Below, piece by piece: positions 39,018 through 62,647 of a stretch of 64,000 nt of DNA. The first letter of the stretch is position 1; each line of letters opens with the position of its first letter. Source of the DNA: Eledone cirrhosa (Eukaryota). The translations under genes and the position numbers were made by a program. The DNA lies in assembly GCA_964016885.1 (NCBI GenBank), contig OZ024746.1, positions 74,958,001-75,022,000 on the forward strand, written 5' to 3'. The notes under the pieces were generated by a model. It made no database searches, was not told where the DNA came from, and was given only the letters and a program-made list of their open reading frames with translations.

Positions 39018-39048
39018 TATATAAAAGCTTGGAAGTTCGTAGTTAGTT
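39018..39048 (+). promoter_or_regulatory. TATA box and Inr-like element of chitin-binding gene A
   Basis: TATATAAAAG at 39018-39027, TTAGTT about 25 nt downstream, ATG about 100 nt further on. Confidence 0.6.
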
Positions 39049-39146
39049 AACTTCACAAAATTTCGGTCGCCCGTATTCTTCTGAAATTCTATTATATCAT
39101 CGAATTCAACACCTATTGATATTATTATTATCTCTCGCATTTTCCA

Positions 39147-39432
39147 ATGATGTATCTTCTATCTACCATTGCCCTTCTGCTTATATCTGCTTCCGTACAC
39201 CGTTCTCATTATATTGCACGACTGTGTAACACAATGCGACTTTCAGATGGAGCCTATTTCGTGAGATCTCCAACCAACTGCAGTAACTTCTACACGTGTA
39301 AAGGGATCCTTACGTTTCCTATTTTGATGACATGTGGCACCGGTTCCGTATTTTCGCAAGCCCATCAAGTGTGTGTCTATCCGAAGAGCTATTTCGATGA
39401 CTGTGCAATCGATGTTTACAGAGGCAAAATGC
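39147..39432 (+). CDS. Secreted double-CBM14 (peritrophin-A) protein A, exon 1
   Basis: Signal-like MMYLLSTIALLLISAS; C-x17-C-x5-C-x11-C-x12-C-x9-C; donor C|GTAAGT, phase 1. Confidence 0.88.
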
Positions 39433-40625
39433 GTAAGTCTGGATATTTTTGCATATTGACACAATCGTGTGTTTGTGTGTGTATGTGTCTGTGTGTGTGT
39501 AGTGTCGGTTTTACCATTGTCTGTAGTTTTGCTTAGCACAGGGACCCGTTGGCCAGTGGGAACCCATCTTCCTGCAAAAAAAAAATCTTACGATAAATTT
39601 TTCAAATGTTTGTCAAATGTTCAAATTTAACTAACACAGGACCTCATTTCTCCTAAATCCGACACTGTGTGTGTTTCTGTGTGTGTGTGTGTGTGTGTGT
39701 GTGTGTGTGTGTGTGTGTGTGTGTGTGTGTGTGTGTGTATGTGTGTGTGTGTGTGTGTGTGTGTGGTTAGGGTGTTAATTCACGATGTTAAAGCCGTGAG
39801 TTCGATTTCCAGCGACGTATTGTCTTTCAACAAACACTTTTTCACGTTACTCCAGACTATTCACACTCACGCTGAATCTCCTTGAGAGTAAAATTAAAGC
39901 TACACCTATCTATGGAAATGTACAACCACCTCCACGTTTATTTCTTTAGCAGAATATTCTGTGGATCAAACAACTAGAACGTTGGAGTTCCAGCAACATG
40001 TATGTATTTACATATGTATACACATCAAACATACATTTATGAAAGTATAAGTATGATATATATATATTTACTGAGACGAGTAAGAAGATTTTTCAACGCT
40101 TTAGAGAAAGTAGTGAATAATTTTAAAAAAAAAACATATAAGCCCTACGATCAAGCTTCAGCCATTTCAAAACGGTTTAAACTTGAAAATAGGATATGCT
40201 CACACACGCGCGCACACACACGCACGCACACACACACACACACACACACACACACACACACACACACACACACACACACACACACACACATATATATATA
40301 TATATATATATATATATATATATATATATATACACCCACGCATAAATACACACATATAGATAAATATATATATATATATCGTAGTTGAAGTTATCCATAT
40401 AAAGTTGTCCATATAATCAGCATGAGGTTCGTGTGTACATGCCATGTGTGTTTGTGTCCGTATGTATGTATGTACGTACATATGTATGTACATATGCATA
40501 TAAATATGCGTATCTGCGTGCGCTTGTGTGCGTACATACGTGTGTATGTGTGTGTCTACATGTGTGTATATCTACGTGAGTGCACATGTCTCTGTTATAA
40601 AATAAATAGATGTCTGTTTTAACAG

Positions 40626-40810
40626 ATGATTCTCTTTGCTTGAAATTTACCGGTATGAATATCGACCCGAAATATTGTAACCGCTTCATACCTTGCTACA
40701 ACGGCACCTCCTACCCTTCTTTGGCTTGTCAACGAGGCCTTCACTTCAGTTTTAAGCAGCAGCGGTGCATGAGTGCAGCCATTGCTGGGTGTCCCCTTTT
40801 GCATGGATAG
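40626..40810 (+). CDS. Secreted double-CBM14 protein A, exon 2
   Basis: TTTTAACAG acceptor, phase 1; HDSLCLKFTGMNIDPKYCNRFIPCYNGTSYPSLACQRGLHFSFKQQRCMSAAIAGCPLLHG*; spliced product 156 aa. Confidence 0.88.
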
Positions 40811-59390: not shown

Positions 59391-59628
59391 TTGTTTCTAC
59401 TTTTGGCACAAGGCCAGTAATTACCCAGTACATTACTGGTACTTTATTTTATCGACCCCGTAAGGCAAAGTTAACCTCGGCGGGATTTGAACTCAGATCG
59501 TAAAGGGACGTAACTCTTTGCGTCAAAGCATGGCGTCCGACCGTCAACTGATACTGCCAATCCACCAGTAATAATTGTTTCTACTTTAGGCACAAGGCCA
59601 GCAATTACCCAGTGCATTACTGGTACCA
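59391..59628 (-). mobile_element. SINE family 1 copy plus truncated tandem copy
   Basis: Near-consensus sequence with AAT spacers. Confidence 0.85.
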
Positions 59629-60146
59629 GTAATAATAATAATAAATGTGAAGACTAAAATCCGAAGAGGGCTCGACAAGTATAATATATATATATATAAA
59701 AATATATAAAACCATAGAGCAAATATTTGCTTAAACTTTATATATATATATATATATATATATATATATACATATATATATATATTTATATATATATAAT
59801 ATATATATATATATATATACATATATATACATACATATATATATATATATATATATATATACATACATATATATATATATATATATATATATATATATAT
59901 ATATATATATATATATATATATATATATATATATATATATATACACATATATATATAATATATATATATATATATATATATATATACACATATATATATA
60001 TATAACACTACAAAACGAATGGTTGAACCCACCATGAATTGTTTTATGCGAAAGGACATAACTATATAAAATATTTACAGATTAATATCTTAATACCATA
60101 ATGTGTTTGTTAATATCAGATATCTTTATCTTCATGTCAGCAGTGA

Positions 60147-60427
60147 TATATTACGTGAACTTAATATCTTCTGTATTCTATTATGTGGCCATTGAATAAG
60201 TTTAGCAACTGATCATGTTTGAAATGTTTCCTTGAACCAAAGATTAATACTAGTTTTTTCTCTCTATTGCTACTCTCATTTTCCCCTATATTACGTGAAC
60301 TTAATATCTTCTGTATTCTATTATGTGGCCATTGAATAAGTTTAGCAACTGATCATGTTTGAAATGTTTCCTTGAACCAAAGATTAATACTAGTTTTTTC
60401 TCTCTATTGCTACTCTCATTTTCCCCT
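60147..60427 (+). repeat. Exact 140-bp tandem duplication
   Basis: 60147-60286 repeated at 60287-60426. Confidence 0.95.
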
Positions 60428-62468
60428 TGACATCAGACTCGTAGGTGGGGTGAGATTTTTGTTTCGAATAGATATATTGAAAGTTGATATAGGTAATAGC
60501 TGGGTACTTTGCTAAGAGTTACACATGATTGAAAGCATTGCTAAGATCATGATCGACAACATTACATTTGCTGACGTCAACAGCTGATGAGTGACACATG
60601 ATTATATGTGACAGAATGAGTCTCCACGGGACCCATGCTGGTGGTAGCTGAAGTGATAAAGGGGCTTAATGCTAACAGATGCTTTCTCTGTATTTTAGAT
60701 ACTAGATGGGAACTAGATAGGTAGAAGCTTGGAGTATATCACAAAAAGTAAAACCATATCAAATATTTGTATAAATTCAGGTAAAATTGAGCGAGGTATT
60801 TAGCAAAGGGGTTATTTCTGGAACTCATTAATTATACTGATGGAAACAATACCGTCGGAACCAATGGCCTCACCGAGTTGAATTAAATGTAATAGTAGAT
60901 ATAACTACAACGATTGTTTATGCATTGGACCCTAGTTAATCTAGCAGACCTTCAACCGAATATTATCATTTGCACTAGCCTGCCTTATGTTCAATCATAT
61001 TGTATATGGAAATATATTATTGAACGAGTCCTTCCTTTTTAAAACGCTACTAGATTAGAATCTAGTTATGGACTTTTGCACGACGTCACTGTGATTATGC
61101 GATGGTAGAACTGATGGAGTACAGAAGGAGAGATTAGAATAGATTAGAAGGAGACATTGTGTCCAGTGCACTGTGGAGGTTGGAATGAACTGGTAAGTGA
61201 ATAAAGAGTCTTGTTCCCTGGAGTGGTACTTATAGAAACATTGATGTTGCGTACTGGTGAGAGGTTTATATTTCGTTATTTAAAACTTATTGTGTTTTAA
61301 TATTTGTCTACACATTATCATGTAGTCAAGATATATAGAGAAACTCAACAATAGATCACAGCTGTTATTTTGTTGGGAATCCATTTATCCAGCGGTCGTA
61401 AATTGCATCAAATGTTACCAAGGTGAAAGTTTCTTGCCCTGACACTATTTTCTAAAACTTGATTGGATTTAAATATATTGAGTAAAATAAGTAGAAATTC
61501 AAATAGATTAATTGATAGATAAAAGGATAAAACAGATGTAGATTTAAGATAATTTTATTCTTATAGAAAAAATGTATTGCTAATCATTATTGCTTCAAAA
61601 ATCGTATTGGTGAAAGAAAGCCTTCTGGGTCATTTTATTTCCAAAATCGTAAACAGTTTCTGAAAAATAATCAAAGAGTAAAAAACTTAAAATGCTGCCT
61701 CTTAAAAATATGTCTATGAAATATGAAATAAAAATTGCTCTTCATTCTCCTAGGCATATACGTTTTTGTGGGCTAAATGATGCCAATTAAATTAAATCAG
61801 GAATGGTAAGTGGGCTACCCACTCGCTTAAGATAGATGTTACTTCTTGCTTGTCGTTGTTTCGAGCAAAATGTATTTTGAATTCATAAAATGAGATGTAG
61901 TCATGTGTCGTAAATTCTTGTTTGACATTTGTTTTATTCGACGCACGGCAATGATAAATGAATTAAACTTTTAGAGTATGTGAATCCACAGTCTCTATTG
62001 TTAAAATTATGAACTTTAATCACTGAAGTATATATTCTGCAATGCTTTGCCTTTTCTGGGACTTATTTCAGCTACATTTAATTAACAGAAAACAAAAGAA
62101 TAAAAGCACCATTGTATAAAAGGTAGTTTGGGTGGGTAATTTATCTTATGACCATCTTATCTTTAAAAATACTTGAGACAATCGACGTTGTAACGTACAA
62201 AATAAATATAAAGCAACTAAGATAAACATCATTTCACTGATGTAAATAATGTATATTTTACGTTTCTTTAAAATACATAAGCATTGTATCAACTAAAGGG
62301 AAATATGATTTAACATTCACTTCGACATTTTCTAACCGAAACAAAACATTTAGTAAGTTTTCTCTTACAGGGGATATTACTGAGTCTAGAAATTTCCATT
62401 GAACAAAATTTAAAACTTGTAATATTAGAAACAGATTTGATAGAATGAAATAAATTAAAGCACTTACA

Positions 62469-62647
62469 TTAGGCCTTACAATTTGCCTTAGCACGAGTGG
62501 TACACCTTTGTAGTCGTGCATTAAAAAAAAGATCAGCTTGGCATGCCATGGATGGGTATGACGTTCTGTTGTAGCAAGGAATAAATCTATGGCAATCTTG
62601 GGGGTCATGGTTACATCCAAATGGGTATTGGCTACACAGAGGATCAT
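62469..62647 (-). CDS. CBM14 protein D, last coding exon (first exon presumably beyond the window end)
   Basis: TTTTCAG acceptor; phase-1 frame DPLCSQYPFGCNHDPQDCHRFIPCYNRTSYPSMACQADLFFNARLQRCTTRAKANCKA*; shares C.RFIPCYN.TSYPS.ACQ with gene A. The ORF track shows a different frame. Confidence 0.87.

Follow-up and report, generated by a model that had tools for sequence, protein, structure and literature searches.

Proteomic work on the squid beak found four chitin-binding beak proteins of Dosidicus gigas (DgCBPs) and proposed a hydrated scaffold of chitin and CBPs that histidine-rich beak proteins infiltrate and cross-link, with hardening through catechol adducts; the authors themselves state that the model still awaits validation (PMC9999432). 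One domain of DgCBP-3 binds chito-oligomers by nuclear magnetic resonance (bioRxiv 10.1101/2020.01.08.899344). We analyzed a stretch of 64,000 nt from the octopod Eledone cirrhosa (contig C6:74958001-75022000, hereafter the window), which carries three small genes on the plus strand, A, B and C, and one coding exon of a fourth gene on the minus strand, D, all encoding CBM14 domains. Judged by their sequences, A, B and D, and C more loosely, are new copies in the known squid beak family of chitin binding beak protein 2 (DgCBP-2; AKI30063.1, our record P0052, 158 residues). Their products are likely to be secreted, non-catalytic tethers that coat and link the chitin fibrils of the beak scaffold, a reading that we hold with moderate confidence.

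Genes A to C each have two coding exons. In gene A, coding exon 1 (39147..39432, +) encodes a hydrophobic leader and CBM14 domain 1, and coding exon 2 (40626..40810, +) encodes domain 2 and the stop codon; they score 39.6 and 29.4 bits against PF01607 (CBM_14), and a TATA-like TATATAAAAG lies upstream of coding exon 1 at 39018 (+). Gene B has the leader and domain 1 in coding exon 1 (42964..43237, +; 34.8 bits), with a second in-frame ATG upstream at 42940, and domain 2 in coding exon 2 (45055..45239, +; 34.1 bits), where AATAAA overlaps the stop codon. Gene C has a divergent domain 1 with cysteine gaps C-14-5-9-12-11 and an uncertain start in coding exon 1 (47750..48083, +; 28.8 bits), and a degenerate domain with four cysteines in coding exon 2 (51756..51919, +; 22.5 bits), again with AATAAA overlapping the stop. 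For gene D, domain 2 is encoded by coding exon 2 (62469..62647, -; 32.3 bits), and exon 1 lies outside the window, about 1 kb after its end (C6:75023026-75023302, -). Thus, all seven exons pass the Pfam gathering cut-off of 22.1 bits (range 22.5–39.6), and the CBM14 core pattern occurs six times in the window and not once in any of 200 block shuffles of it.

Translation of the window bore out the exons, open frames and phase-1 GT-AG junctions that a sequence-only reading of this DNA had drawn for A to C, and the Pfam check agreed with its claim of one CBM14 domain per exon. The donors after 39432, 43237 and 48083 are GTAAGT, GTAAGT and GTGAGT, and AG precedes 40626, 45055 and 51756. When the models were joined by script, the spliced products came to 156 residues for A, 152 for B (160 from the ATG at 42940), 165 for C and 151 for D. 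Six cysteines are present in both domains of A and B, in domain 1 of C and in domain 2 of D; domain 2 of C has only four. A hydrophobic N-terminus, called solely from hydropathy, precedes the two CBM14 domains, and we found neither a mucin linker nor a catalytic part in A to D. Two N-x-S/T sequons are conserved in most two-domain copies. A single long multi-domain gene was also considered and rejected, since every exon pair starts with a leader and ends in a stop codon of its own.

The resemblance to DgCBP-2 covers the whole architecture. Like the genes described here, the squid protein belongs to a type of about 150–160 residues with a leader and two CBM14 domains, and it shares the FSQxQQVCV and YDDC motifs and both sequons. 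In BLASTP comparisons the identity to DgCBP-2 was 38% for A, 40% for B, 54% over 122 residues for D and 46–50% for seven further copies, E to K, that lie beyond the window; at the level of single exons it was 35% over 92 residues for exon 1 of A and 38% for exon 1 of B. The domain 1 gaps of DgCBP-2, C-17-5-11-12-9, together with its 13-residue linker, recur exactly in A, B, K and X1, a copy on a second contig, C4; D to J have a third gap of 9 instead of 11, and C falls outside the pattern. This spacing had been read correctly in A and B. It had also been called unusual, which did not hold, since it is the signature of DgCBP-2. Among the 234 proteins fetched, 34 showed the pattern 17-5-(9-11)-12-9, and those that carry names are all from cephalopods. 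A search with a first-exon profile found 16 proteins among 388 candidates, and all 14 with names belong to Octopus vulgaris, O. sinensis, O. bimaculoides or Argonauta hians. DgCBP-2 surfaced among the best 150 of 744 matches in a wider search, in which those 150 were considered and names were obtained for 10 of them.

We then placed these proteins in a tree of 37 rows, from which C was left out and in which the proteins were cut to domain 1 and the start of domain 2. Genes A, B, D to K, the C4 copies X1 to X3, all other two-domain proteins and DgCBP-2 formed one clade (support 97/93), apart from the three-domain proteins including DgCBP-3. DgCBP-2 also differs from the octopod genes in several respects. 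It is one deposited squid sequence, which is not a genome count, compared with 11 copies on C6 and three on C4 here; its second domain leaves the family consensus after CFNHT; and A, B and C form diverged sister lineages for which no one-to-one orthology to it emerged. The deposited sequence departs abruptly from the consensus over residues 124–158, as a sequencing frameshift would make it do. A frameshifted tail was examined and rejected, because the best alternative-frame match had an E value of 4.6, which is not significant.

The novelty that had been implied for the family finds no support; it is largely an already characterised one, and orthologues of the D type are annotated in other octopods. 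The annotated proteins of O. vulgaris (CAI9724911-914), O. sinensis (LOC115213516-546), O. bimaculoides (LOC106872968-972) and Argonauta hians (gene models) are orthologues or co-orthologues of D to J (best identities 74–79%) and of K (76%), and within each species they share a single contig with three-domain genes. In these records (one of cDNA type, the remainder gene models) the junction and the linker are the same as those of the array genes. The O. vulgaris label for the D-type orthologues is "binding beak 2"; the proteins are otherwise uncharacterised. These annotated octopod proteins yielded no counterpart of A, B or C, and the best annotated matches among the 234 fetched proteins were 49% for A, 49% for B and 32% for C; exon 1 of gene B is 76% identical to one unnamed protein, P0001. 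The lack of annotated matches is a weak sign of under-annotation because the searches depend on shared words, and any such gap may be confined to A, B and C. A literature search returned no paper on this cluster or its LOC identifiers; its coverage extended neither to Tan et al. 2015 nor to the supplementary tables of PMC9068888.

The window edge cuts through a much larger array. Where four genes had been counted from the window, a scan that reached 200 kb beyond its end, 40 kb upstream of it and 60 kb past the last gene showed that about 216 kb of C6 hold at least 14 genes with CBM14 domains. Genes E to K, on the minus strand and extending to 75.134 Mb, are seven more two-exon, two-domain genes. 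Beyond them lie three three-domain genes in which every domain has its own exon: L (C6:75155743-75160859, -), M (C6 75.180-75.186 Mb) and N (C6:75198698-75212712, -). No other CBM14 exon appeared upstream of gene A, back to 40 kb before the window start, or over the 60 kb that follow N. A second cluster on contig C4 (342943504-343131815) contains the two-domain genes X1 to X3 and the three-domain gene Y, which is a lower bound because 110 kb of that region was examined. In Argonauta, the contig that carries D-type genes also holds the orthologues of N, M and L, under consecutive accessions. In Octopus species, the contigs with orthologues of X1 and Y match in length those with orthologues of D to N, which suggests a single chromosome there that is split here over C4 and C6 by a rearrangement or by assembly.

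Gene L ties the array to a second squid beak protein. It is 65% identical to DgCBP-3 (AKI30064.1, our record P0218; PDB 7BWE/7BWO) in exon 1 and 82% in exon 2, and its exon 3 matches the solved third domain (7BWE) with an E value of 1.8e-32; on this sequence evidence L is the DgCBP-3 orthologue. DgCBP-3 resembles the two-domain genes in having the same CBM14 domain, one per exon, and its orthologue lies about 135 kb from D. It differs from them in its three domains, its other cysteine spacing, its 21–36% identity to A to K and its separate clade. Because neither DgCBP-1 nor DgCBP-4 appeared in the named records, M, N and Y are not assigned to them.

The two-domain copies are strongly diverged, with frames and splice sites intact, as had been claimed. 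All 14 two-domain models (A to K and X1 to X3) have open frames and canonical junctions, while mutual identity is 70–86% among D to J and 32–50% among A, B, K and X1 to X3. Selection on D to J is purifying: the ratio of nonsynonymous to synonymous substitution rates (dN/dS) was 0.36 over the 21 D–J pairs (bootstrap 0.26–0.47). The A/B pair gave a dN of 0.46 and a dS of 1.6, and most older pairs were saturated. These values bear on chitin-directed defence, which had been offered as a second possible role and is left without support because dN/dS is well below 1. In its fullest form, this alternative makes the genes a secreted, tachycitin-like chitin-recognition family, directed against fungi or parasites and expanded by pathogen pressure. 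It can draw on tachycitin among the fold matches (rank 10, E 0.18), on a lineage-specific turnover of copies, as in a nine-row clade of O. sinensis and O. vulgaris, and on the basic isoelectric points (7.6–8.9) of 9 of the 11 two-domain genes on C6. However, no D–J pair exceeds 0.63 in dN/dS over the whole gene and the characterised proteins closest to them are structural components of the beak, and we consider a defence role very unlikely.

The fold offers a further point of comparison. An AlphaFold model of an orthologue, P0007, which is none of A to D, has a mean predicted local distance difference test score (pLDDT) of 83.6 and matches EHEP, Der p 23 and the CBM14 domain of CHIT1. EHEP, a three-domain CBM14 protein of the sea hare, reportedly binds tannins. 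It is the best PDB match (8IN3/8IN6) both by profile (E 1e-7 and 4e-8) and by fold (E 4e-7), which raises the possibility that the domains described here bind polyphenols or proteins rather than chitin and, in a beak, could localise catechol cross-linkers. Beak hardening does use catechol adducts, and the aromatic residue of canonical chitin binding is gone from all second domains. Nevertheless, the match to EHEP amounts to 25% identity and reflects a common multi-CBM14 architecture, and A to K are neither histidine- nor tyrosine-rich (His 0–3.7%, Tyr 2.9–6.9%), so that we regard polyphenol binding as highly improbable. EHEP of Aplysia kurodai and the insect peritrophins and CPAP (obstructor-type) proteins are likewise secreted, non-catalytic proteins with tandem peritrophin-A domains; the likeness lies at the level of the domain only (about 25%), and the 17-5-(9-11)-12-9 pattern was in no fetched insect or snail protein.

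In human chitotriosidase, Trp465 is the residue most important for binding (PMC5459812). By alignment, its equivalent is the second residue past the fifth cysteine, and this residue is Tyr in domain 1 of A and B and Trp in domain 1 of E, F and H. The DgCBP-3 study emphasises polar contacts (bioRxiv 10.1101/2020.01.08.899344).

The reading of a beak scaffold role rests on homology to DgCBP-2 and on linkage to the DgCBP-3 orthologue, and the guess of a chitinous structure, with the beak named first, thereby gains backing at the level of sequence. We propose that the proteins would be secreted from the buccal epithelium, folded with disulphide bonds and N-glycosylated at the two conserved sequons. 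Domain 1 might be the main chitin grip, with a strength that differs between copies, as we speculate from one residue position; domain 2 may bind weakly or contact other matrix proteins. The proteins could then act as bivalent tethers in a hydrated scaffold of CBPs and chitin that is hardened later.

Several observations weigh against this role or against close kinship to DgCBP-2. The residue equivalent to Trp465 is non-aromatic in domain 1 of C, D, G, I, J, K and X3 and in DgCBP-2, and in none of the second domains is it aromatic; therefore, canonical chitin binding may be weak. Chito-oligomer binding was measured on a DgCBP-3 domain and not on DgCBP-2. In the tree, DgCBP-2 sits in an open polytomy of 27 rows, with a tool warning of long branches meeting near the root; its best BLASTP matches are D to J, not A to C, and gene C is 27% identical to it, with an E value of 3e-6 in a 14-sequence database. 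Finally, a study of squid stomach and intestine assayed a transcript called "chitin binding beak protein", given in its primer table (PMC5999225), and a CBP-3-like transcript is abundant in the chiton radula (PMC6351634), so the name by itself is no guide to the tissue.

These last two reports open the way to an alternative with the same family and the same tethering of chitin, acting mainly in other linings, namely the oesophagus and stomach cuticle, a peritrophic-type membrane, the radula, the sucker cuticle or hatchling bristles, with the paralogues split by tissue. Gene N is old: its domain 1 is unusually conserved across chitons, gastropods and cephalopods, at 73–89% identity, with the chiton, limpet, sea hare and snail proteins all in this range; limpet, sea hare and chiton are beakless. 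The 32–50% identity among A, B, K and X1 to X3 also leaves room for a division of labour. On the other hand, the only family proteins reported as isolated from a tissue come from the beak (PMC9999432), and the two-domain type is cephalopod-only among the named records. We consider other linings as the main site rather unlikely, and tethering in the beak scaffold remains our preferred reading for A, B and D.

Gene C is an odd and apparently degenerate member, with a looser tie to the DgCBP-2 family than A, B and D. The description of a leader followed by two domains therefore fits A and B and is less secure for C. A pyrimidine tract ending in TAG at about 47829-47831 coincides with its leader, with a possible acceptor at about 47831, which leaves the N-terminus uncertain; in domain 2 the second and sixth cysteines are gone, and the 22.5 bits are barely above the cut-off. 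Gene C is 25–31% identical to every other two-domain member, and the genome search gave no close paralogue. In a tree including C it had the longest branch (8.55), and its placement was not settled there. Together with at most 32% identity to any of the 234 fetched proteins, these features make it possible, although on balance doubtful, that this gene, alone among the copies, is in decay or wrongly modelled rather than a working member. Both of its frames are nevertheless open, its splice sites are canonical and AATAAA overlaps its stop codon. The second and sixth cysteines, moreover, are presumably disulphide partners in the peritrophin-A scheme, and loss of both would suggest a paired loss under selection. 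The intron of gene C contains a broken retroelement of the long interspersed element (LINE) type with reverse-transcriptase-like fragments (49075-50838, -).

The array also bears on how octopod beaks may stiffen. Beak proteins have reportedly been studied in one squid species only (PMC9716703). The histidine-rich beak proteins are defined by Gly/His-rich GHGXY repeats (PMC9999432), and they are reported absent from O. bimaculoides (PMC9068888), yet octopods carry many genes of the CBP-2 type. With their low histidine content, A to K do not belong to that class. Two degenerate DNA patterns for the pentapeptide repeats gave no matches in the E. cirrhosa genome, a search that had no positive control and is not proof of absence. 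There are 14 two-domain copies here, and their contact residue switches among Trp, Tyr, Phe, Ala, Leu, Ser, Thr and Arg. One could speculate that CBP-2 and CBP-3 arose from one old molluscan CBM14 cluster beside FOG/ZFPM, that octopods multiplied and diversified the two-domain type, and that graded tethers build the stiffness gradient of the octopus beak, unlike the squid route; we think this scenario quite unlikely as a whole. The array makes octopus beak stiffening testable, given the reported absence of histidine-rich proteins in O. bimaculoides, and it gives octopod beak proteomics a list of genes to look for, with four unannotated-looking genes placed in a known family and that family mapped to one array. 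Its importance would grow if expression data linked these octopod genes to the hardening of the beak.

The 3' ends of the genes show a further shared feature. A splice donor lies 1–8 nt past the stop codon in D (62460-62471, -) and A (40808-40826, +), and in the same place in E to H and K. The visible exon of D had been taken for the last exon; it is the domain 2 exon, as stated above, and is probably the last coding exon rather than the last exon, because a GTAAGT donor lies 1 nt past its stop. The donor in gene A is GTGAGT at 40819, from which an intron in the 3' untranslated region (UTR) would follow coding exon 2. In E and H the donor lies 1 nt after the last sense codon, and the intron may split the stop codon. 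Taken together, these donors suggest a conserved 3' UTR exon; comparison of the downstream DNA located no such third exon for D to K. Reads from three runs of one sample cross both splice sites of gene B without a 43237/45055 joint; they are DNA-like and so are no test of splicing, and these runs may derive from the source sample.

Other features of the region are as follows. The upstream neighbour of the array is a ZFPM2-like open frame of 1001 residues with CCHC and C2H2 zinc fingers (FOG/U-shaped type) at 17219-20221 (+), which is a useful synteny anchor. A genome-wide PF01607 search gave 110 matches among the 150 of 266 candidates that were scored, and other dense groups of CBM14 exons lie at C1 297.50-297.62 Mb, C2 338.28-338.49 Mb, C2 90.89-90.98 Mb and on C25. 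Just past the array, C6:75244676-75248892 holds long open tandem-repeat frames of more than 1100 codons on both strands, which could be a minisatellite or a mucin-like exon. Between C and D lies a broken LINE-type retroelement with an RVT_1 match (55669-58100, -), and the window also contains a 16-bp unit repeated seven times at 46303-46417 and an exact 140-bp tandem duplication at 60147-60427.

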